A stretch of DNA of 64,000 bases from an uncultured Bacilli bacterium (GTDB lineage Bacteria > Bacillota_I > Bacilli_A > RF39 > UBA660): the NCBI GenBank assembly GCA_944358455.1, contig CALVRE010000042.1, positions 299-64,298 of the forward strand, read 5' to 3'. The position numbers were made by a program, and so were the translations under genes. How positions within the stretch are numbered: position 1 is the first letter of the stretch; each line of letters opens with the position of its first letter. Below the pieces are notes generated by a model. It did not search any database. It worked only from the letters and a program-made list of their open reading frames with translations, and was not told the origin of the DNA. Below are positions 29,176 to 40,209 of this stretch, piece after piece.

Positions 29176-30120
29176 TTATAATTCAAAAATTGTATTTTTT
29201 ATAAATTTATAGTCTGTTTTATACTTAATTCCTCGTATCAAACGAAACATCGCTTCGTCTTTTGCTTTCGCTTCCAACATGATATCACAGTCTTGATTCG
29301 TAAATTTTATCTTTTCTAAAAAGGCTAAAAAAGAATCTAAATTGACATAATCATGATGACTACGAAACTCTTTCTTACTTTTAGGAGAAGAAAAATGAAT
29401 CTTGGGGACATAATTCGTGTCTTTCCAGGTTTGGAAAATCGCTTCGATATAATCCTCTACTTTCTCTCCGTGATTATTGCATAAATGATGATGATAATCC
29501 AACACCATCGGAATTTTCAACGTTTCACATACTTCCAACGTATCTTTCATCGTAAAAATTTTATCGTCATTTTCTAAAATAATATGTTTTTGTAAATAAG
29601 GATCAAGTTCTTTAAAACGTTTGATAAATCGTTTTTTACTCGCTTCCACTCCGAACGTGCCACTTCCAATATGCAGAATCATTTGTCCATCGATTTGCAT
29701 CGACTGAAACATAAATTCGTGATATTTGAGCATATTAATACTGGAGAGAACAACTTCAGAGCGAACACTGTTTAAAACACAAAATTGATCTGGATGAGTA
29801 TCGACGCGCATGTGATAACGTTTGATCAGTTTCCCAATTTTTTGCCACTCTTCCTGATAACGTTTTAAATCCAAAGTTACCTTTGGATGAGTCGCAAACG
29901 GAATAAGATTAGATGTCATTCGATAAAATTCAATTTCGTTTTTATAATTATAAAGAAGGATTTCTTTTAAATTACTAAAGTTAGATAAAATAATTTTTTC
30001 TAATTTTTCTTCTCTTTGACTAGGATTACAAGACTCATAATATGTATAAGTCATACTCGAAGACGAAGTTAAGGGTGCAAGTGTTAAAGGAATTGCTACA
30101 TAGCCTAATCTGATTTTCAT
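29176..30120 (-). CDS. uvsE: UV damage endonuclease (UvdE/UvsE)
   Basis: RLGYV, HPDQF, LENDDK and DYHHH motifs of the UvdE family. Confidence 0.8.
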   Translation of the reverse strand: MKIRLGYVAIPLTLAPLTSSSSMTYTYYESCNPSQREEKLEKIILSNFSNLKEILLYNYKNEIEFYRMTSNLIPFATHPKVTLDLKRYQEEWQKIGKLIKRYHMRVDTHPDQFCVLNSVRSEVVLSSINMLKYHEFMFQSMQIDGQMILHIGSGTFGVEASKKRFIKRFKELDPYLQKHIILENDDKIFTMKDTLEVCETLKIPMVLDYHHHLCNNHGEKVEDYIEAIFQTWKDTNYVPKIHFSSPKSKKEFRSHHDYVNLDSFLAFLEKIKFTNQDCDIMLEAKAKDEAMFRLIRGIKYKTDYKFIKNTIFEL

Positions 30121-30138: not shown

Positions 30139-30696
30139 ATGGATAGAAAGGAGGAAAACATGACATTAAAACAAGAAAAAATCATCGCTGTTATCGGAAC
30201 TTTTTTGCTGGCTTTTTTGTTTCATTTTCTGTATGAATGGTTTCCGAATACACTATGTTCCATTTTCTTTCCCGTCAACGAAAGTATTTGGGAACACATG
30301 AAATTATTATTTACACCAATTCTAACCTTCGGTATCGTGGAATTCTTGATTTTAAAATATCTTCATATCAAAACTCATAATTATTTTTTCTTTTTAACGA
30401 TTTTAGCTTTACTCAGTATCCCATTCTACCTTCTTTTTTATCTACCTATTTATTACATGATAGGAGAACAAATGTGGTTCAATATTGCTCTATTATTTCT
30501 CGTTATTTTACTCGTTCACATTGTTCATTATTTTCTCATTCAAAAAGATCTACACTTTTACTCCAATGTTTGGGCTGTCTTACTTGTCATAATCGGTTAT
30601 ATTATATTCGGATATCTTACCTATCAGCCAATCAAAAGTGATCTCTTTTTTGATCACTTAAACGAAAAATACGGTGTTAATACTTATCGTATATAA
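30139..30696 (+). CDS. Hypothetical polytopic membrane protein
   Basis: A 185-aa hydrophobic ORF with the RBS AGGAGG. Confidence 0.5.
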   Translation: MDRKEENMTLKQEKIIAVIGTFLLAFLFHFLYEWFPNTLCSIFFPVNESIWEHMKLLFTPILTFGIVEFLILKYLHIKTHNYFFFLTILALLSIPFYLLFYLPIYYMIGEQMWFNIALLFLVILLVHIVHYFLIQKDLHFYSNVWAVLLVIIGYIIFGYLTYQPIKSDLFFDHLNEKYGVNTYRI

Positions 30697-30728
30697 CAAA
30701 AAAGGAAAGTTTTCACTTTCCTTTTTAT
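30696..30728. terminator. Bidirectional Rho-independent terminator
   Basis: AAAGGAAAGT-TTTC-ACTTTCCTTT with A- and T-runs on both sides. Confidence 0.55.
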
Positions 30729-30733
30729 CTAGT

Positions 30734-31939
30734 CTACGGTTCATATCCATACAAATCATACAATTCATCTAAAGCACATTGTACGGTTTCACAAGTTGTA
30801 TATCCTAAGCTATTGTCATATGCTGTGATTCTGGCATGTGGCGTTGCGACCATCGTAACTTCTACACTTTTACTACTAACATGTCCTGCTGCATCGGTTA
30901 CCCAGAAATAAACGGTTCCATTTTCTTTTGCCGTATAAGTATAAGTTTGTTCAGATGTTGTTGCGCTAACATTCGTAAAGGTATTCGGTTGATTATTTGT
31001 GGTTGTCCAAGCATAACCGGTAATACCACTTTGACTATCGATCACTTTTGCCGTTACAGTATTGGTTAATCCTAATGTTGTTTGAGCAGTAAGACTTGAA
31101 ATAACAGGTGGCGTTTTATCTAATTGATAATGCATACTATTAACATTCGAACAGATTTCTGTCGTATGTGGCGTTTTTGCATTATCTGTTGCGGTTATAC
31201 AAATTGCATATTTGCCATCATTTTGAATTGCTACAATAGTTCCACTTGGATCAGCATCAGTCGTTGGTGTGCAGGTGGAATTCGTGGTTAAGCAATATTT
31301 AAATTCGGTTATTGCTACATCATCTGTTGCGCTTATTTGAACATTAAAATTTTCCGTTTTCCAAATGCTATCCGGCTCTGGATTAAACGTGATTGTTGGT
31401 GGCGTAATATCGATATACACATCACCAAAAATAAAGTTAAACTCAGCTGAATATGTTGTAGAGGATGTACCATTATTCTTAATTACAAGTGTAATAGTAA
31501 CACTTTCACCTGCTGGTATTTCATCGATTCCCACTTTATAATCGGTAATTTCATATGTAATGTTACCATTTAATTCATCACGAATCTCTTCGATCAATTT
31601 ATTATTACTACTATTATTTGTAATCGTAATCTTATAAGTAATCGTAGCATTTTGATTTGGCAATACCCCTTTACTAACTAATAAATCATGACTATATTGA
31701 TAATTTCCGTTCTCATAAGCACCATTCGATAGAATTGGCCCTTCGACATTCGTAATTCGAATATCTCGATCTGGTCTTATTTCAGTATTTGTTCCAATAC
31801 TAAGAACTCGAGAAAGTAAAGAAAAACCAATGGTTAAACTAAATAAAAATAACAACAGCAGAAAAACAAGAACTACTTTTCTGGTTCTCGAAGAATAATA
31901 AAAAGAATCTTTCCACTTGTTTCTCTTATAATTTTTCAT
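30734..31939 (-). CDS. Secreted or surface Thr/Asn-rich protein with a SipW-cognate-like signal peptide and Ig-like repeats (TapA-like accessory candidate)
   Basis: A hydrophobic N-terminus is followed by FSLLSRVLSIGTNTE, a cleavage-region motif shared with the two TasA-like proteins. The start was set at MKNYK, with RBS GGGTG. Confidence 0.6.
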   Translation of the reverse strand: MKNYKRNKWKDSFYYSSRTRKVVLVFLLLLFLFSLTIGFSLLSRVLSIGTNTEIRPDRDIRITNVEGPILSNGAYENGNYQYSHDLLVSKGVLPNQNATITYKITITNNSSNNKLIEEIRDELNGNITYEITDYKVGIDEIPAGESVTITLVIKNNGTSSTTYSAEFNFIFGDVYIDITPPTITFNPEPDSIWKTENFNVQISATDDVAITEFKYCLTTNSTCTPTTDADPSGTIVAIQNDGKYAICITATDNAKTPHTTEICSNVNSMHYQLDKTPPVISSLTAQTTLGLTNTVTAKVIDSQSGITGYAWTTTNNQPNTFTNVSATTSEQTYTYTAKENGTVYFWVTDAAGHVSSKSVEVTMVATPHARITAYDNSLGYTTCETVQCALDELYDLYGYEP

Positions 31940-32039
31940 TTCCAACACCCGATTATTATGTATCTTTACTATTCATATTTTACCTTATTTTTCCATTTTT
32001 ATCAACACCAGATGACATAAAAAGTACATTTCTATAAAA

Positions 32040-32069
32040 TAAAAAGAAAGTAACTTTCACTTTCTTTTT
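32040..32069 (-). terminator. Rho-independent terminator after the bitopic-protein gene
   Basis: AAAGAAAGT-loop-ACTTTCTTT followed by a T-run. Its sequence is similar to the hairpin at 30700. Confidence 0.5.
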
Positions 32070-33081
32070 ATTTTAATATATATTGATAGATAATATTTTC
32101 ATCTACAATTATAAAGATACTTGAATTTTTCTTTCGGTAATGTAAAATTGGTTTTTCGACATTTTCTCGTGCATCCATCAACTCTTCGAAAGATGATACT
32201 ACCACTACCTGCTTTCCTTCTGTAGATGGAAGTACTTTTGTTTCTACAATCGCACGATCATAATGTTTTTGAATTTTATCTAATTCGATTCGATAATGTC
32301 CTTTCGCTTTCTTCTCTTCTTCGATCATGCGAACAAGAGCAAGAACAACGAAGATTTCTAGTAAAATTCCTACCCAGAAAAAGAAGAAAAAGACAATATT
32401 CGTTATTTCTAATTGATTTTCCTCTTCCACAATAGAAGATTGATTGATATCTTTATATTGCATTCCTACTTGAATCGTCTGTTCTGTCAAAGGGATCTTC
32501 ATCTCTAAAGATTCATTTTTAATAACAGGATTTTTAAATTCGTCATATCCTGTCGTAATATGGATATTCAACTTTACTTGTAAATAACTATCTAAAGATA
32601 AGGCATAATCACTTTTAAATTCACTAATAATTTGATTATATTGATCATAATCAATTTGTACATCATCTGATATCGTAAAACTTTGTGCATGATCAACCTG
32701 TTGTTGTTGTAAATCTTTTAAAACATAATCCTTTTGATATAGTATTTGACTTTCATTTCCAGGCTCATGAGCAATGACAGTACCCGTAATATCATAAGAA
32801 TAATTCATATCGACATTCTTATCGGTATAATATGTATAATGAAAATTTACTGCAATGTAATCAATCAAACTTGCAATATATTGTCGTCCGGCCGGAAGAT
32901 AATCCTCCTCGAAATAATCGTTTTCCTTTAAATAGACATAATAGTCAATTTTACTTTGTTCTTGTACTTCTAATTGTCTTATATCAGCAAAACTAATACT
33001 TTCTTTCAAACAAAATATCGATACGATCAATACAGCTATAAATAAGAGAATACATGACCCTTTCTTAATAATTTTCTTCAT
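32068..33081 (-). CDS. Bitopic membrane protein (N-terminal signal-anchor, large extracytoplasmic domain, C-terminal TM helix plus ~90-aa cytoplasmic tail); hypothetical
   Basis: The start was set at MKKIIKK with RBS GGAGG. It is translationally close to the upstream peptidase gene. Confidence 0.55.
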   Translation of the reverse strand: MKKIIKKGSCILLFIAVLIVSIFCLKESISFADIRQLEVQEQSKIDYYVYLKENDYFEEDYLPAGRQYIASLIDYIAVNFHYTYYTDKNVDMNYSYDITGTVIAHEPGNESQILYQKDYVLKDLQQQQVDHAQSFTISDDVQIDYDQYNQIISEFKSDYALSLDSYLQVKLNIHITTGYDEFKNPVIKNESLEMKIPLTEQTIQVGMQYKDINQSSIVEEENQLEITNIVFFFFFWVGILLEIFVVLALVRMIEEEKKAKGHYRIELDKIQKHYDRAIVETKVLPSTEGKQVVVVSSFEELMDARENVEKPILHYRKKNSSIFIIVDENIIYQYILK

Positions 33082-33085
33082 ATGT

Positions 33086-34225
33086 TTACCTCCATTCACT
33101 TAACCAGACGCTTGGATATCCAATCGCAGGAATTCTCAATCTTGCAACGCCTATAATATCTTTTTCATAAATGACCATTGCATCTATATCGTCGTTATTA
33201 TCACCTTTGGTTCGATAAGTATAATTTCCATCTTGAGAGTCATTTTTTTGGACAACGCGGTGAACAATAACCCGATTATCATTACGATACACCAAAACAT
33301 CTCCCACTTCTATTTCATCTTTCTCTTTATCTGTCAGCTTATCTACAATAACGACATCGCCTCTTTTAATGTTCGGACTCATCGATGGCGATACGATCGC
33401 TAAAAAGTAATATTTAAAGAAACCACTCGTTAAAAGAATGACCACTATGACCAATATCCCAAAACATGCATTCACAATCATTCTTCCAGGATGCTTTGAT
33501 TCCCTAACAAAAAACATTCGTTCTTTCTTCGTCGCCCTATAAATTAATAAACAAACGATAAAAGGAAAAACTATCTCTAATATACTGGTTAAATAATTTC
33601 CTAAGTTCGGATAAATCGGCACCATATAAATTGGCAATTCCGTCAACAAGCGAAACCAAATGACCGATTTCCAAGAAATGTGATACATTAAAAAAGTAAA
33701 CGCTATATTTTTAGCAATACTAGGTAAAATAATTAAACTAATATTATCGATGATAGCATTGATATCATGTCCAAGTGGAAATGCTCCTCTAGCATCAAAT
33801 AAAATCAAAAATAATACTAATAAAGTTAACACAATCTTTTCGTGAGATCCATTCTTATATTTCGATACCACTTCATAACGTAATAACTCTTCTGCAACAA
33901 TCACTAATATTACAGGCAAAATATTTTGAAGTATAGTCAGAAAATCCAAACTATAAACGGTTCTAGCATATCCAGTAAAAATACCTAACACATAGACAAT
34001 GACAAAATAACATATCACATAACTAATCAAACTAAAGTTAATATCTAACGTTTTTTCCGACTTATCTTTTTCAAAGCCTTTTAGCAACACTATGACAATA
34101 AAGAAGATCGTCAAAAAAACAAATCCTAACAGTTGATTCGAAATAAAACGAAACAAAAAATTATTGCAAAGAATCAAAATAATTGCAATCAATTCAATTA
34201 AAACGATTTTTTGGTACTCCCTCAT
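33086..34225 (-). CDS. Fusion protein: CPBP (CAAX/Abi-type) intramembrane metalloprotease domain plus C-terminal type I signal peptidase (S26, SipW-like)
   Basis: The N-terminal ~270 aa is polytopic with EELLRYE (EExxxR) and FLMYH (FxxxH) CPBP motifs. The C-terminus has SPSMSP (catalytic Ser box), RGDVV, HRVV and GDNN S26 boxes. Confidence 0.7.
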   Translation of the reverse strand: MREYQKIVLIELIAIILILCNNFLFRFISNQLLGFVFLTIFFIVIVLLKGFEKDKSEKTLDINFSLISYVICYFVIVYVLGIFTGYARTVYSLDFLTILQNILPVILVIVAEELLRYEVVSKYKNGSHEKIVLTLLVLFLILFDARGAFPLGHDINAIIDNISLIILPSIAKNIAFTFLMYHISWKSVIWFRLLTELPIYMVPIYPNLGNYLTSILEIVFPFIVCLLIYRATKKERMFFVRESKHPGRMIVNACFGILVIVVILLTSGFFKYYFLAIVSPSMSPNIKRGDVVIVDKLTDKEKDEIEVGDVLVYRNDNRVIVHRVVQKNDSQDGNYTYRTKGDNNDDIDAMVIYEKDIIGVARLRIPAIGYPSVWLSEWR

Positions 34226-34337
34226 TCACATCACCAATCAATATTGTCGTTACTATATTTTATATTATAATATATTCTTTTGTTTTTATCAAGAATATCT
34301 ATCACAAAATTTACTTTTTGCAATATTAAAACAAAAA

Positions 34338-34357
34338 AAGAGAGACATAACTCTCTT
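34338..34357. terminator. Bidirectional terminator after TasA-like paralog B
   Basis: AAGAGAGA-CATAA-CTCTCTT with A- and T-runs. Confidence 0.5.
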
Positions 34358-34359
34358 TT

Positions 34360-34938
34360 TTAAGCTTGAACATAAGTGATTGTTGCACCAGAACCATTAA
34401 CTGTTACATCAGCCGTAGGTAACTGAGTTGCAGTATCTTTATAGGTAACTGTTAATTTAACTGTTTTGGTTTCGTCAGCATTTAACGTATCATTTTGAGC
34501 AATAGCAGTTCCGCCATCTACATATGTTAATGTATACTCATATGAAGTTTCTACTAAAGTTTCATCTGCGTCTTTAGTGTCTCCACTTCCAGTAAATGTA
34601 GGCGTCTTAGGAGAATAAGTACCAATCTTGGCATTGATTTCTCCATCATTTACGATATCGAACGTATAACTAACAGAATCTCCTGGAGCTTTTAACACAA
34701 CACCAGTTAAAGTTACAGTAGTATTATCTAAGCTAATACTACCTTTGTCAGCAGTACCAGTTACTTCTCCTGCACTGGCATTTTCAAAGTGAACATTCCA
34801 GCTCGCATTTAAAGATTGTACAGTAGAATCTGTATTAATATTTAATACTTGTGATAATGCTGCATAACCTAGTGTTACTCCTCCTATTGCGATAATCAAC
34901 GCAGCGATCGCTATTGTTCTTAGTGTTTTGCTTTCCAT
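34360..34938 (-). CDS. TasA/camelysin (M73)-like secreted protein, paralog B
   Basis: The signal peptide ends in GYAALSQVLNINTD. VVLKAPGDSVSYTFDIVNDGEI resembles the TasA motif LKPGD..F.F.N.GSL. RBS is GGAGGA. Confidence 0.65.
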   Translation of the reverse strand: MESKTLRTIAIAALIIAIGGVTLGYAALSQVLNINTDSTVQSLNASWNVHFENASAGEVTGTADKGSISLDNTTVTLTGVVLKAPGDSVSYTFDIVNDGEINAKIGTYSPKTPTFTGSGDTKDADETLVETSYEYTLTYVDGGTAIAQNDTLNADETKTVKLTVTYKDTATQLPTADVTVNGSGATITYVQA

Positions 34939-35175
34939 ATAAACTATTTCCTCCTCACTTCTAATTTTTATAACACCACTACTATGTTATACAATCTCAT
35001 TATAAAAAAATTTTTGATAAATTTCAATACTTTTTTTACTTTTTTCGACATATTATGCATTTCTATGGTCAATAAAGCTTTAAAAATCAACGGAAATTGA
35101 TATCCAACAAAAAATTCAAAATGCTACCAAAAGTAAAAAAATTGAGCAAAATTTGAATCATAGGAAATCTTTCTT

Positions 35176-35229: not shown

Positions 35230-35805
35230 TTATGCTTGTACATACGTGATAATGACACCTGATCCGTCGATATTAACATCGTTTGTAGGTTCGAAATCAC
35301 CTTTTAGTTGATATGTGATCGTCAGCTTTAAAGTTTTTCTTTCGCCCTCATTTAAAACGTCTGACACGGTAAGTGGTGTTCCATCTTCATACGTTAATAT
35401 ATACTGATAGGCATCTCTTACGATTGCTTCATCTACTTCCGATGTCTCACCAAAACCTGTGAAACTTGGATTCTTATAATCGATATTTCCGATTTTCGCA
35501 TCCAAATTTCCATCATTTACGACTTCAAATGTATATGTAACAGAATCTCCAACATTTTTTAGAATAACGCCGTTTAACGTTATGTTAGTGGCATTTAATG
35601 TTAAGATTCCTTTCTCTGCATTTCCCGTAATGATTCCATTGCTTGCGTTTTCAAAATGAATATTCCACTTTGTATCTGGCGTTTGAACATAAGAATTTGC
35701 CTCCACTTTCAATATCTGAGAAAGTGCGGCATAACTGATTGACAATGCTCCAATGGCAAGTATGAGTGCTGATACAGCAATTGTTCTTAATGTGTTCTTT
35801 TTCAT
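35230..35805 (-). CDS. TasA/camelysin (M73)-like secreted protein, paralog A
   Basis: The signal peptide ends in SYAALSQILKVEAN. VILKNVGDSVTYTFEVVNDGNL is the same TasA-like motif. The start was set at MKKNT with RBS AGGAGGG; the gene is monocistronic with its own terminator. Confidence 0.65.
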   Translation of the reverse strand: MKKNTLRTIAVSALILAIGALSISYAALSQILKVEANSYVQTPDTKWNIHFENASNGIITGNAEKGILTLNATNITLNGVILKNVGDSVTYTFEVVNDGNLDAKIGNIDYKNPSFTGFGETSEVDEAIVRDAYQYILTYEDGTPLTVSDVLNEGERKTLKLTITYQLKGDFEPTNDVNIDGSGVIITYVQA

Positions 35806-35865: not shown

Positions 35866-35903
35866 CAAAAAAACACAAAAAAAGGGAACTAATACTAGTT
35901 CCC
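35866..35903 (-). terminator. Rho-independent terminator, candidate end of the comE transcript
   Basis: GGGAACTAGTATTAGTTCCC followed by TTTTTTTGTGTTTTTTT on the minus strand. Confidence 0.5.
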
Positions 35904-36214: not shown

Positions 36215-38299
36215 TTATGGTATACAAGTTTTCATTTCTAATTTTTTATGTTTAATTTTAAACATCATACTACCGTTTAAATCAGTTCTATAAATCATAG
36301 AGTTAGAGAGATTTTCTAGTACTTTATCATGAGGATGACCATACCAATTGTTTTTTCCTACTGATATAATGGAATATTTTGGATGAATACTACTTATAAA
36401 TTCTTCACTGGAACTTGTCTTACTCCCGTGATGTCCCACTTTCAATATGTCTATATCCGTAAGATCATATTTTTTTAAAATATCCTCTTCTACCTCTATT
36501 CCTGCATCTCCCATGAATAGCATTTTAACTCCATTATAATCAAAATATAATACATTAGAATTATCATTTTCATTATCGTATAATTTGTGATTTAAAAAAT
36601 ATATCTTGTGCCCCTTTAAATTTAATTCTTTGATGTTTTGACAATACTCAATCCTTTTTTCGTCTAGTATTTTTATTAGTTCTTGTTCTAACTCGTTATA
36701 ACCATCTGGATTAAAAATTACTTTTTCGATCGGGAAATGGTTTACTAAATAAAACGCTTCCCCCATATGATCGAAATCGCCATGAGTGAAAAGAAGAAAA
36801 TCAAGTTTTTGAATTCCTCTCGACTTCAAATAAGGAATTAACGTATTTTTGCTGATATTGTAATCATAGTCTTCCAAATTCATTAAATTTCCCCCTGTAT
36901 CAATCAGAATATTTCCTCGATTATACGGAAGTTCCATCAAGATCGCATCTCCTTGTCCTACATCTAATACGGTTACTACCACATAGTTGCGAAAATACGG
37001 CATCATATATAAAATAGCCAGTAAAACTGGTAATAATAGCATTCTTCTTTTTCGATAATGATAGATTCCAATGATGATCCATATCAAACTAGCGATTAAT
37101 ATACCTAAAAAGACAAACGATGGTTTCATAAAGGAAATCGTGAATAAAGAATAAGAGGATAATCGTTGCGATAGCGTTTCTAAAATAGAAATTAACACGT
37201 GATAGATTTTTCCTAGTGGCGCAAATAACAAGACAAAAAAAGAAAGTGGGAATAATAAATAGGTCACGTATGGAACAAAAAACAAGTTATAAATAGGCGT
37301 TAGAAAAGTCAGTTCAAAATTATAAGTAAGAGAGATGGGAATCCCTGTCAAAAAGGCAAGCAGAGAAATCAACCATAATTTTCGAAAATATCCTTTTTGT
37401 TCTTTTAAATAACGATTGCCATAGATGAGTACAAACGATATAGTAAAACTATAAAGAAAACCCAAATGATATACATAATAAGGATTATAGAAAAGTAAAC
37501 AAGAAATAACGAACATCAACAAATAAATGGTGTCGATTTTTAAATGAACAATCTTTCGTAATGTCAAAAGATAAAATAATAAAAGTGCTCTTAAAATAGA
37601 GGGAGAAAAACCAGTTACGAATGAATAAAATAATAAAATGATACTAACGATTGCATAATTTCTCTTTTTGTCTTTCCAAAAGCGATTTAAAATGGCAAGA
37701 ATGGTCGTTGCCATAAACGTAATATGCATTCCGGAAACGGAAAATAGATGACTGATGCCATTATGCTGATAACTATCTAATACATCTTCCTTAATATCAC
37801 TGCTATCTCCTAATAATAGATATTTTAAATAATCGGCGTGTTCTTTGGTATCAAAATAATCATTGATTTTTCCTTTCCAATCGTAAAGTAACGAATGATT
37901 CTTGTTTACTAAACGAATATCGGTAGGTACTAGTTGATAATAAATTTTTTTACTCAATAAGTAGTTACGGTAATTAAATAACCCAAAGGTACGATTCGTA
38001 GATGGTAATTTCAAAGTTCCTTCCACTTCGATTTGATCTCCTACTTCATAATCGAATGGTTCATAGATTGTCATAATGACTTTTTCTTTTCCTTTTATTT
38101 CGACTGTCGTTCGATCTTCTTGATTTTTCAAGGATACGATCGTTCCGATTATTTTTATTTCTCCTTCGTGATAAGAAGAAAAAATGATTTTTCCTTTGAC
38201 CACCCAAAAAGAATATACGAATGAGACAAAAAGAAGAAAAAGATAAAATTTCTTAGATTGTAATATAATCTTTAAGTTTTTCAAATGTACTATCGCCAA
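36215..38299 (-). CDS. comEC: DNA internalization competence protein ComEC/Rec2 (with metallo-beta-lactamase domain)
   Basis: An N-terminal OB/DUF4131 region and polytopic competence domain are followed by a C-terminal MBL fold (VLDVGQGDAIL, HGDFDHMG). Confidence 0.9.
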   Translation of the reverse strand: MAIVHLKNLKIILQSKKFYLFLLFVSFVYSFWVVKGKIIFSSYHEGEIKIIGTIVSLKNQEDRTTVEIKGKEKVIMTIYEPFDYEVGDQIEVEGTLKLPSTNRTFGLFNYRNYLLSKKIYYQLVPTDIRLVNKNHSLLYDWKGKINDYFDTKEHADYLKYLLLGDSSDIKEDVLDSYQHNGISHLFSVSGMHITFMATTILAILNRFWKDKKRNYAIVSIILLFYSFVTGFSPSILRALLLFYLLTLRKIVHLKIDTIYLLMFVISCLLFYNPYYVYHLGFLYSFTISFVLIYGNRYLKEQKGYFRKLWLISLLAFLTGIPISLTYNFELTFLTPIYNLFFVPYVTYLLFPLSFFVLLFAPLGKIYHVLISILETLSQRLSSYSLFTISFMKPSFVFLGILIASLIWIIIGIYHYRKRRMLLLPVLLAILYMMPYFRNYVVVTVLDVGQGDAILMELPYNRGNILIDTGGNLMNLEDYDYNISKNTLIPYLKSRGIQKLDFLLFTHGDFDHMGEAFYLVNHFPIEKVIFNPDGYNELEQELIKILDEKRIEYCQNIKELNLKGHKIYFLNHKLYDNENDNSNVLYFDYNGVKMLFMGDAGIEVEEDILKKYDLTDIDILKVGHHGSKTSSSEEFISSIHPKYSIISVGKNNWYGHPHDKVLENLSNSMIYRTDLNGSMMFKIKHKKLEMKTCIP

Positions 38300-38822
38300 T
38301 TCCTTTTACGTTTTTTAACTCATCGATCGAATTAAAATTACCATTCTCTTGTCTATAATCGATAATTGCTTGTGCTTTTACTTCACCAATTCCTGGTAAC
38401 GTCAGCAACTCCTGTAATGTTGCTCGATTTAAAGAGATTTTGGTGTTTGTATTTTCAGCAGAAGGTTCATTCGTCTCGACATGATTTTGATCGATACAAC
38501 CATCATTTTCGATTGTGGGGCATATACATTCTTTTTCAATATATTTAATAGCTGTATTCCCTTCCTCAAACTGGCGGATTTCATCTTTTGTATAGATAAT
38601 AATTACCATTTCATCTTCTAAAAGCTTGCTTAAATTGATCATCGATGTATCCGCATCGACATTTAATCCTCCGCTTTTTTCAATTACATCTTGGACACGA
38701 CTTCCCGCCTCTAATTCATATAATCCTGGCTTTACAATAGCACCTTTGATGTCAACTTTGATGGTTGTTTGTTCATCTGTCGTAGGTTGCTCCACTGGTT
38801 TTACAGTTAGTTCCTCTTGCAC
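38253..38822 (-). CDS. comEA: ComEA DNA receptor (SLBB plus tandem HhH), missing its membrane anchor; the anchor lies upstream in the same frame (38871-38951) and is separated by an in-frame TGA
   Basis: The SLBB motif is IVKPGLYELEAGSRVQDVIEKSGG and the HhH motifs are LPGIGEVKAQAII and VKGIGDSTFEKL. The listed start is a GTG. The upstream fragment encodes MKIILSWWDQYRYKWYVLGIVVVFILS* and has the RBS AAGGAG. Confidence 0.75.
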   Translation of the reverse strand: MQEELTVKPVEQPTTDEQTTIKVDIKGAIVKPGLYELEAGSRVQDVIEKSGGLNVDADTSMINLSKLLEDEMVIIIYTKDEIRQFEEGNTAIKYIEKECICPTIENDGCIDQNHVETNEPSAENTNTKISLNRATLQELLTLPGIGEVKAQAIIDYRQENGNFNSIDELKNVKGIGDSTFEKLKDYITI

Positions 38823-39054: not shown

Positions 39055-40209
39055 TTAAATACGAATACGTTCTCGTTTGGTTTCAATATGAACACGTTGG
39101 ACGATCGCTAACGATACGATAAGGGAAAGTGCAAACGATCCACCATACGAAAGGAACGGCAGTGGAACACCGGTCAAAGGCATAATTCCAAATAACCCAC
39201 CCAAATTAATTAATATATGCATAAAGATATATATCGCAACTCCAAGTGCTAAATATTGTCCACGAATCGTTGTAGCATTCATGGAAATATCTAAAATTCT
39301 TTTTAAAATAAATATATAACCGATAAAAATAGGCGTTACAAATAATAATCCATATTCTTCTACGATAATAGAGAAAACGGAATCGGTATGAGCTTCTGGA
39401 ATATAAGAGTATTTTTGTTTACTCTTCCCTACTCCTAATCCCGTTAATCCACCACTATTAATCGCAATAAAACTATTACAGATCTGATACCCCCCGGTTT
39501 CATAGCGACTACATGGATCCCAGAAATTAAAGCGAGCAAGTTGGGCATCTGTTAAAATATAACCTTTGGTATTTAAAATTACCAGAATTCCAAAGGCAGC
39601 AACGATAATTAAAAAGATAACTGTCTTTAATTTTTCGATCCGTAAAATAGGGCTCGCTAGAAATAAAACACCAAATATTGCCAACAGAATTAACATACCA
39701 CCAAAATCTTTTTGTTCAAAAACGAAAATAGGAAACAATAGACCAACAAACAAAATAATACCAATCATATCATAATGATTGATCCCTTTCGTACGTAACT
39801 TTTTATAAAAAACATCAAATAAAAGGGCCAAACATACGATTAAAACCGGTTTTGCAAATTCACTTGGTTGAACACCAAAAATCCAGTTTTTCGCACCACG
39901 ATGGGATTCTCCACGGAATGTGAGCATTGCCAGTAAAAACGTAACGCCAATAAAACCAACGAAAGCAAACGTTTTCCATTTCTTCGTCGGAATACTTAAA
40001 ATAAAAAGAGAAACAAAAACACCTAACAATAAAATTTCCATCTGTTTAAAAAAATAATAATAAAGAGAAATATTATAAGAGACCGCTTCACTGGAAGAAG
40101 CAGTTACAATATTTAAAGTTCCAAATAAAAACAAGATAATCGTTACAACAAGTAAAGGTTTATCCATATCATTGATCGTATTCTTTAAACTTTTGATTAA
40201 TGGCTTCAT
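39055..40209 (-). CDS. SEDS-family peptidoglycan glycosyltransferase (FtsW/RodA/SpoVE)
   Basis: 384 aa with ten TM helices and typical SEDS motifs (GGS...LP, IPEAHTDSVF). Confidence 0.85.
   Translation of the reverse strand: MKPLIKSLKNTINDMDKPLLVVTIILFLFGTLNIVTASSSEAVSYNISLYYYFFKQMEILLLGVFVSLFILSIPTKKWKTFAFVGFIGVTFLLAMLTFRGESHRGAKNWIFGVQPSEFAKPVLIVCLALLFDVFYKKLRTKGINHYDMIGIILFVGLLFPIFVFEQKDFGGMLILLAIFGVLFLASPILRIEKLKTVIFLIIVAAFGILVILNTKGYILTDAQLARFNFWDPCSRYETGGYQICNSFIAINSGGLTGLGVGKSKQKYSYIPEAHTDSVFSIIVEEYGLLFVTPIFIGYIFILKRILDISMNATTIRGQYLALGVAIYIFMHILINLGGLFGIMPLTGVPLPFLSYGGSFALSLIVSLAIVQRVHIETKRERIRI

Follow-up and report, generated by a model that had tools for sequence, protein, structure and literature searches.

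A CPBP-fold membrane domain fused to an ER/archaeal-type signal peptidase I in a probable AbpX-like fibre cassette of an uncultured Bacilli bacterium

Here we present an analysis of a fused signal peptidase gene from an uncultured Bacilli bacterium, located at 33086..34225 on the minus strand of a 64,000-nucleotide stretch of DNA (contig CALVRE010000042.1 of assembly GCA_944358455.1; the whole stretch is hereafter referred to as the window). The gene encodes a single protein of 379 residues, followed by a stop codon, that comprises an N-terminal CPBP-fold domain (hereafter the N-domain), a cytoplasmic linker and a C-terminal signal peptidase I of the endoplasmic reticulum (ER)/archaeal type. 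In our assessment the protein is probably the dedicated leader peptidase of an operon for AbpX-like donor-strand fibres, in which the CPBP-fold domain would be a built-in pseudoprotease acting as a scaffold or regulator. An earlier interpretation of the window, made from the letters alone (termed here the sequence-only reading), had recognized both halves of the protein and had proposed that they are two active membrane proteases working on neighbouring substrates.

The open reading frame (ORF) at 33086..34225 runs from ATG to stop without interruption in the ORF listing, and a Shine–Dalgarno-like GGTGA lies 5' of the ATG. The N-terminal part was correctly described in the sequence-only reading as polytopic, since it contains eight transmembrane (TM) helices within residues 1–233; the domain sizes given there (~270 and ~110 residues) are replaced by ~245 and ~134 residues. 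All of the sequence strings on which that reading drew are present in the protein (EELLRYE at residues 112–118, FLMYH at 178–182, SPSMSP at 279–284, RGDVV at 288–292, VHRVV at 321–325 and GDNN at 341–344). The full-length AlphaFold2 model has a predicted local distance difference test score (pLDDT) of 89.8 and a predicted template modelling score (pTM) of 0.62. A word-indexed search returned 203 homologues; among the 120 listed, nearly all are 370–393 residues long with a query coverage of 87–100%, and identity extends down to 31%. The layout of ~380 residues is common to >100 clusters (90% identity) and to 313 unique sequences, down to ~27% identity. These 313 unique full-length members, assembled from the searches, are the basis of the family conservation statistics given below. 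A profile of the N-terminal 245 residues alone matched 1,591 clusters (50% identity) among 1.84 billion representatives, and the best 150 of these clusters are almost all ~375–385 residues long. Database entries for this protein class are annotated simply as signal peptidase I.

A joining of two genes by a frameshift or an assembly error, the objection raised in the sequence-only reading against its own proposal, can be practically dismissed. A few shorter relatives of 230–300 residues do exist, but these stop abruptly, like contig-end fragments, and the same fused length recurs across hundreds of independent assemblies and taxa; an ENA metagenome contig of independent origin also encodes the identical protein, followed downstream by the same gene. 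The view that both parts belong to one polypeptide thus stands, with a continuous ORF in the window and the same architecture in 313 unique relatives. The 230–300-residue relatives were also considered as stand-alone N-domain genes and rejected as such, given their abrupt ends. One relative of 812 residues (P0137) combines the N-domain with a truncated peptidase box and, after it, with domains of the calcineurin-like phosphoesterase and 5'-nucleotidase types; it is most likely a chimeric assembly and not a real architecture.

The peptidase part (residues 246–379; 33089..33490, minus strand) is composed of a signal-anchor TM helix (residues 246–267, the peptidase's own anchor in the model) and an S26B catalytic domain, without a C-terminal TM helix. 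Its sequence is that of a signal peptidase I of the ER/archaeal type with an intact catalytic site (SipW/Sec11-like, Ser-His-Asp). The NCBIfam model TIGR02228 (sigpep_I_arch) matches residues 257–375 with 80.6 bits (cutoff 51.85), and both PF00717 (31.2, cutoff 23.3) and PF10502 (27, cutoff 22.9) pass their thresholds. The catalytic residues S281 (in SPSMSP), H322 (VHRVV), D342 (GDNN) and D348, which span 33182..33385 on the minus strand, are each 100% conserved in the family, as are M282, R323 and G341, and the general-base position is occupied by the His of the VHRVV box, not by Lys. The S26 assignment of the sequence-only reading is thus genuine. The SipW equivalog NF046067 scores only 63.6 bits where 190 are required, and we therefore class the enzyme as SipW-like and not as a SipW orthologue. 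The spacing of the Ser, His, Asp and Asp residues (41/20/6) is close to that of yeast Sec11, which is 39/20/6 (S44/H83/D103/D109). Among PDB entries searched with Foldseek, human SEC11C matches the full-length model best (7p2q_A; E 3.8e-5, 27% identity, TM-score 0.61 normalised to the target). The active site of the peptidase is predicted to lie outside the membrane.

The C-terminal end of the protein has features of its own. After a conserved G-x-P-[ST]-[VI] stretch only 10–23 residues remain in the family, and no C-terminal TM helix is present. The last residues of the window protein (GYPSVWLSEWR, residues 369–379; 33089..33121, minus strand) form a family-specific motif, G-x-P-[ST]-[VI]-W-L-x-E, which stands where SipW-type enzymes have their C-terminal TM helix and is modelled as a short helix; a 59-sequence alignment shows no variation at G369 and P371. 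Possible contacts of this motif are the CPBP-fold domain or the surface of the membrane.

The fused peptidase gene lies in a cassette on the minus strand, in the order comEA–comEC, a terminator-like site, a gene for a 191-residue subunit, a gene for a 192-residue subunit, the fused peptidase gene, a DUF5305 gene and a gene for a 404-residue protein. The 191-residue subunit (35230..35805, ATG at 35805) is the first of the two AbpX-like proteins; it is 53% identical to the 192-residue subunit (34360..34938), carries the same motif ...SYA↓ALSQ (the arrow marks the predicted cleavage site) and, like its neighbour, is a probable substrate of the peptidase. The DUF5305 gene (32068..33081, ATG at 33081) starts 4 nt past the peptidase stop and encodes a protein of 337 residues that matches PF17231 with 66 bits (cutoff 29). 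The tip/adhesin-like protein of 404 residues (30734..31948) is matched by the small-subunit hidden Markov model, has the motif ...IGFS↓LLSRVLSI and shows weak PKD/Ig-like and DUF11 matches. A genome-locus search, run with an alignment of 13 closer sequences, yielded 86 fused-peptidase genes in the fetched loci, of which 80 had room on the relevant side. DUF5305 is encoded directly downstream of the fused peptidase in 77 of these 80 loci (spacing −25 to +35 nt), and a subunit-like gene is found upstream, likewise in 77 of 80. The proposal that the gene adjoins its likely substrates is upheld by this synteny and by the match of the subunit profile to AbpX described below.

The subunits are assigned, on profile evidence, to AbpX-like fibre proteins of the TasA superfamily. 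A profile built from 45 subunit sequences aligned with AbpX of Pyrodictium abyssi (sequence taken from the supplement of bioRxiv 10.64898/2026.01.04.697558) with a probability of 92.7% and an E-value of 4.4e-7 over 140 columns (hhalign). PF12389 (camelysin/TasA) gave a weak match in 12 of the 45 sequences, and the profile had no significant match among PDB sequences. The subunits and the tip-like proteins share an N-terminus composed of a K/R-rich start, ~20 hydrophobic residues and the motif [VI]-G-[YF]-A-A-[LF]-S-x-x-L-x-I-x-G-T-A, which is seen in the window (34360..34938, 35230..35805 and 30734..31948), in loci L002, L004 and L006 and in 80 genome loci, and which is far more conserved than the c-region of an ordinary Sec signal. 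In all 99 motif-bearing N-termini the −3 residue is G, A or S and the −1 residue is A, S or G, and from this uniformity cleavage is predicted after G-[Y/F]-A. The predicted site is in register with that of AbpX (...GYA↓A-L-S-Q-V-L-N-I against ...TYA↓Q-W-S-E-T-L-S-L), and the PG...F..N.G core of the subunits also aligns to AbpX. An aromatic residue at donor-strand position 2 is stressed in the AbpX preprint (bioRxiv 10.64898/2026.01.04.697558), and TasA has Phe at P2' (PMC10269814); window-type subunits have L or F at this position. The intact catalytic residues, together with neighbouring precursors that carry a G-[YF]-A↓A site, suggest that the fused enzyme cleaves the signal peptides of its cognate precursors.

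The cassette resembles the abpX loci reported in January 2026, in which minor subunits and tip proteins are encoded together with a dedicated signal peptidase I and, as an accessory subunit, DUF5305 (bioRxiv 10.64898/2026.01.04.697558). In the window, too, an AbpX-like subunit with an N-terminal donor strand is accompanied by a linked peptidase, DUF5305 and a tip protein; major and minor subunits are AbpX-like and the gene order is identical. By analogy with the accessory role proposed in that preprint, DUF5305 is a putative signal-peptidase accessory subunit. The AbpX-associated peptidase is described there as "structurally distinct, possessing ten transmembrane helices"; its text does not mention CPBP, CAAX or Rce1 and makes no domain assignment. 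Both peptidases are dedicated, TIGR02228-type enzymes with many TM helices beyond the usual two, a comparison made with the abpX-locus peptidases by description only. The counts differ, in that ten helices are reported there and nine are present in the window family, which lacks the C-terminal one: eight extra helices and the usual two make ten, and without the C-terminal helix nine. The carriers also differ, the window family being found in uncultured gut Bacilli and Saccharibacteria. With SipW, encoded in the tapA-sipW-tasA operon of Bacillus subtilis, and with Sec11, the fused enzyme shares the ER-type Ser/His chemistry, and with the SipW system the proposed dedication to donor-strand fibre subunits, whose P2' residue is aromatic or Leu. 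By contrast, SipW, with its two TM helices, lacks a CPBP-like module, and its system has TapA as accessory protein where the window cassette has DUF5305.

The N-domain (residues 1–245; 33491..34225, minus strand) adopts the eight-TM CPBP/Rce1 fold with degenerate catalytic motifs. With the peptidase anchor helix that follows its eight helices, the protein has nine TM helices in all. The best structural match of the N-domain is Staphylococcus aureus SpdC/LyrA (6u0o_A; score 12.6 over 209 positions), followed by Rce1 of Methanococcus maripaludis (4cad_C; 10.5 over 206), TMEM147 (7.0 over 145) and APH-1B (6.6 over 144); from the fifth match onwards the list consists of unrelated repeat proteins with scores of at most 6.5. 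APH-1 has itself reportedly been proposed as a CPBP relative by Pei et al. in 2011. Foldseek with the full-length model also lists Rce1 (probability 0.72–0.75, TM-score 0.46–0.49). At the level of sequence the assignment finds no such match. PF02517, the CPBP family model, gave no match at E<=1 for the fused protein in the Pfam scan, none at E<=10 in 35 relatives and none in the precomputed Pfam assignments of 120 homologues, and an NCBIfam scan gave no CPBP match in the N-domain. The CPBP assignment of the sequence-only reading thus holds for the fold and does not hold for a PF02517 match or for the motifs on which it had been based. The N-domain profile returned only noise from all PDB sequences (proteorhodopsin at E>4), tblastn of the N-domain against plasmids gave no match, and a motif scan found no second CPBP gene in the window. 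As a CPBP reference we used 11 annotated CPBP proteins taken from plasmids, in which EExxFR, FxxxH and HxxxN are invariant; profile–profile alignment of the N-domain to this reference (hhalign) gave E-values of 0.11 (local) and 0.013 (global), which are not significant, and was used for the motif register only.

The failure of all of these sequence searches would be expected if the N-domain were an unrelated eight-helix bundle that resembles CPBP proteins by convergence and serves as a generic anchor or a transporter-like module. We regard this as very unlikely: Foldseek detects Rce1 independently, TM4, TM5 and TM7 each carry one of the three motif positions in register, and motif 1 still has its Glu and Arg.

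Motif 1 survives as a remnant, E113-L-L-R116, in TM4 (33878..33889, minus strand; xExxR, aligned by hhalign as VAEE-LLRY against IFEEILFRG). E113 and R116 are conserved in 99% and 98% of the 313 relatives, whereas position 112 is Glu in only 10%. The sequence-only reading had taken EELLRYE for the EExxxR motif of CPBP proteases; EELLR is EExxR, so that the spacing is wrong, and a strict EExxxR occurs nowhere in the fused protein. The motif 2 position is L140-I-L-F-D144 at the end of TM5 (33794..33808, minus strand), where hhalign places D144 opposite the motif-2 His: the family has F (72%) followed by three residues and D or E (89%), and a reference CPBP reads FALFH where the window protein reads LILFD. 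FLMYH, previously offered as motif 2 (residues 178–182; 33680..33694, minus strand), is a chance match. Its place is not in TM5 but in TM6 (helix 155–182), at the end facing the cytoplasm; its His column contains K in 55%, N in 16% and H in only 7% of the family, and an F...H pattern arises in 31% of shuffles of the N-domain. The motif 3 position, R192-L-L-T-E196 in TM7 (33638..33652, minus strand), was placed by the global hhalign alignment, for register only and with a score that is not significant; the family shows Y-R (58%)-x-x-x-E (56%) there and the reference HxxxN. No H...[N/D] pattern is found anywhere in the fused protein, and no N-domain column among the 313 sequences contains more than 25% His, so that the canonical Glu/His/His/Asn site is absent independently of any alignment. 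The finding that the sequence-only reading had named as fatal to its own proposal, a missing second His motif and missing metal ligands, is what we observe. As the canonical catalytic His, His and Asn are lost, the N-domain is read as a pseudoprotease, most likely one like SpdC, LnsB and SpbR. The label 'metalloprotease' is in any case outdated, current annotations naming CPBP enzymes glutamic-type intramembrane proteases. Compared with Rce1 and active CPBP proteins (PF02517; PDB 4cad), the window family has in common the motif 1 Glu and Arg in TM4; it differs in EExxxR becoming xExxR, FxxxH becoming FxxxD and HxxxN becoming RxxxE, and in having neither a Pfam match nor a conserved His. In the Rce1 work of Manolaridis (2013) and Plummer (2006) it is reportedly the first Glu of the EE pair that is treated as catalytic.

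Conservation in the N-domain is also high outside the motifs. The loop between TM7 and TM8 (P203-I-Y-P206-N-L-G-N-Y211; 33593..33619, minus strand), predicted to be extracellular and to contain a short β-strand, has P203 and P206 at 97% each and Y211 at 86%, and G81 and G85 are conserved at 99% and 96%; the model has strands at residues 86–88 and 204–206. Together with G81 and G85, the P203–Y211 loop may be where the peptidase domain or the substrate makes contact. After E113 and R116, G81, G85, P203, P206 and Y211 rank as the most conserved positions of the N-domain; their loops are predicted to be extracellular and would share the peptidase domain's side of the membrane, which fits a conserved interface without proving one.

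Degenerate CPBP proteins with known partners offer the closest parallels. SpdC and LnsB are non-catalytic CPBP homologues with degenerate motifs, and SpbR of S. aureus, with the motifs HELYMR, FIYLD and QIVAI, binds SpsB, a signal peptidase of type I, through the TM helix and the extracellular domain of SpsB and modulates its cleavage, inhibiting it in vivo and in vitro; mutation of H118, E119 or R123 of SpbR has no functional effect (PMC12260438). Compared by published motifs, SpbR and the N-domain both keep the Glu and Arg of motif 1, replace the motif 2 His by Asp (FIYLD against FxxxD) and have lost motif 3, and in both cases a type I signal peptidase has a degenerate, polytopic CPBP-like protein as its physically coupled partner. 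The differences are that SpbR and SpsB are two proteins and the window family has a single chain, that SpbR is an inhibitor, and that SpsB is a general housekeeping peptidase, whereas the window enzyme is proposed to be dedicated to fibre subunits. In the complex of SpdC (LyrA) with SagB (PDB 6u0o), a non-catalytic CPBP-fold protein serves as the dock for a single-pass membrane hydrolase, whose extracellular active site it positions; there the partner is a peptidoglycan glucosaminidase, the complex is non-covalent, and the sequence identity of the N-domain to SpdC is only 10%. The SpbR-like motif pattern and the docking of SagB by SpdC together make it the simplest reading that the N-domain is a non-catalytic partner of the peptidase to which it is fused. 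Of the ideas in the sequence-only reading, its fallback, a chaperone or accessory module, thus fits best, in agreement with the non-catalytic SpdC and LnsB and especially with SpbR (PMC12260438).

The proposal that both domains are active, the CPBP-like one making a second maturation cut or degrading the released signal peptide through a non-canonical site of E113, D144 and E196, has several points in its favour: the fold is that of a real family of intramembrane proteases, E113 and R116 are ~99% conserved with an acidic residue at the motif 2 position in 89% of relatives, and the domain is fused to a peptidase that adjoins substrates with an unusually conserved signal region. It nonetheless appears quite unlikely to us. 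Both CPBP catalytic His residues and the Asn are absent family-wide, which leaves the second cut unsupported; the position of the Glu reportedly treated as catalytic in the Rce1 work is Glu in only 10% of the family; R192 and E196 are only 56–58% conserved; no Pfam CPBP match is found; and SpdC, LnsB and SpbR, with similar motifs, are non-catalytic, SpbR remaining functional when motif 1 is mutated (PMC12260438). A non-canonical catalytic or ligand-binding role of E113, R116 and D144 is compatible with these data.

We thus favour, as the probable reading, a dedicated leader peptidase with a built-in CPBP-fold pseudoprotease. In the mechanism that we propose, cleavage of the class-specific signal by the peptidase domain would take place outside the membrane, following G-[Y/F]-A, and would free the N-terminal donor strand A-[L/F]-S-x-x-L-x-I, letting the subunits polymerise. 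The CPBP-fold domain would be a built-in scaffold, docking or regulatory subunit and not a second protease; it would probably hold the anchor helix and the catalytic domain of the peptidase, and possibly the signal helix of the substrate, thereby restricting the enzyme to its cognate substrates. The fusion would then be the covalent counterpart of the non-covalent SpbR–SpsB complex, and DUF5305 may complete a small signal peptidase complex.

The same parallel with SpbR admits another role, in which the CPBP-like domain is mainly an autoinhibitor that silences the peptidase as long as neither DUF5305 nor a cognate precursor lifts the inhibition. SpbR does inhibit cleavage by SpsB (PMC12260438), the FxxxD at motif 2 recalls its FIYLD, and DUF5305 is an obligatory neighbour. 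An inhibitor permanently fused to a dedicated enzyme would, however, be less economical than a docking module, and the retention of the fusion in 313 sequences, together with the multi-TM peptidases of archaeal loci described in the preprint, argues for a positive role; we therefore consider autoinhibition unlikely, while inhibition and scaffolding alike fit the data.

Several observations weigh against the pseudoprotease scaffold that we favour. The CPBP homology is weak in sequence, with non-significant hhalign E-values and a low probability obtained against a thin reference of 11 sequences, and the motif equivalences rest on that non-significant register and not on a structural superposition. 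The full-length model has a pTM of 0.62 against 0.87 for the N-domain alone, and pLDDT is low in the linker. A passive scaffold has no obvious need for the degree of conservation seen at E113 and R116 (~99%) and at position 144 (D or E, 89%). Finally, SpsB is a bacterial P-type enzyme with a Ser/Lys site, whereas the window enzyme is of the ER/archaeal type with Ser/His.

A broader version of the scaffold model is conceivable but doubtful. The fused protein and DUF5305 would make up a signal peptidase complex of prokaryotes in which the cut is linked to the assembly of the fibre: the cavity of the CPBP fold would grip the signal-anchor helix of the AbpX-like subunit as it arrives, the Ser/His domain would cut after G-[Y/F]-A, and the freed donor strand would pass directly to the growing fibre; dead CPBP-fold proteins would be ancient, general partners of signal peptidases.

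Part of this picture is already known: multi-TM peptidases in abpX loci have been described in one 2026 preprint, and a CPBP pseudoprotease that binds and regulates a signal peptidase (SpbR) since 2025. In the literature we found no description of a CPBP/Rce1 fold for the extra helices, of a covalent fusion to an ER-type enzyme or of a link to SpbR–SpsB. Present in 313 unique relatives and 1,591 clusters (50% identity), the fusion shows independently, from genomes, that such a functional partnership is widespread, and it adds an ER/archaeal-type enzyme to the signal peptidases linked with CPBP-like proteins; it also offers the CPBP/Rce1 fold as a candidate identity for the unexplained extra TM helices of abpX-locus signal peptidases. 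If the broader version of the scaffold model is true, the fusion would be Rosetta-stone evidence that dead CPBP-fold proteins partner both P-type (SpbR–SpsB) and ER-type signal peptidases, in parallel to APH-1 in γ-secretase and TMEM147 at the translocon. No new catalytic mechanism is revealed, and the role of the domain is inferred. Dedicated peptidases of the SipW type govern how TasA-like fibres for biofilms and adhesion are assembled, and the cassette suggests that a fibre system exists in two groups whose surface structures are poorly known, uncultured gut Bacilli and Candidatus Saccharibacteria.

Consensus matches mark several regulatory-like sites in the cassette (34264..34292, 34334..34361, 34999..35027, 35884..35903 and 30699..30726). 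The gene for the 192-residue subunit has its own strong promoter-like site (11/12 consensus matches) and terminator-like hairpin, a separate 11/12 promoter-like site precedes the peptidase gene, and a terminator-like site follows the gene for the 404-residue protein (30726..30699). On these matches the cassette looks subdivided in transcription, which would fit a high expression of the major subunit.

Across loci, the gene after DUF5305 often encodes a subunit-like N-terminal module joined to a variable C-terminal region, which is PKD/Ig-like in the window (30734..31948), leucine-rich repeat (LRR)-like in L004 (9265..12039) and Laminin_G in L006 (9187..11223); the gene in the same position in L002 (9212..10570) also has the subunit-like N-terminal module. 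This pattern suggests that the gene encodes interchangeable tip adhesins.

The window is chromosomal, with dnaG, sigA, ftsW/rodA, comEA/comEC and uvdE nearby. The cassette is flanked on one side by genes for a DUF6512 membrane protein (30139..30696, plus strand) and UvdE (29176..30120, minus strand) and on the other by comEA–comEC (36215..38822, minus strand). The presence of FtsW/RodA (39055..40209) indicates that the organism makes peptidoglycan.

Matches in genomes are almost all to metagenome-assembled genomes. The carriers are labelled as uncultured Bacilli, Tenericutes, Mollicutes, Mycoplasma, Erysipelotrichaceae or Clostridia, with several labelled Candidatus Saccharibacteria or Nanosyncoccaceae; the best match is 72% identical, so that the genome representatives do not include the species of the window itself. 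The cassette is complete in eight loci of the Saccharibacteria/Nanosyncoccaceae genomes (L044, L051, L060, L061, L063, L065, L075 and L095). These organisms are episymbionts with tiny genomes, in which a TasA/AbpX-like fibre may matter for attachment to the host. The low-GC, Bacilli-type cassette was also found on contigs labelled Muribaculaceae, Bacteroides helcogenes, Bacteroidaceae or Acidaminococcus (among them L024, L026, L029, L031, L032, L034, L035, L039 and L050); these Bacteroidota and Acidaminococcus labels probably reflect mis-binning or mislabelling of metagenome-assembled genomes.

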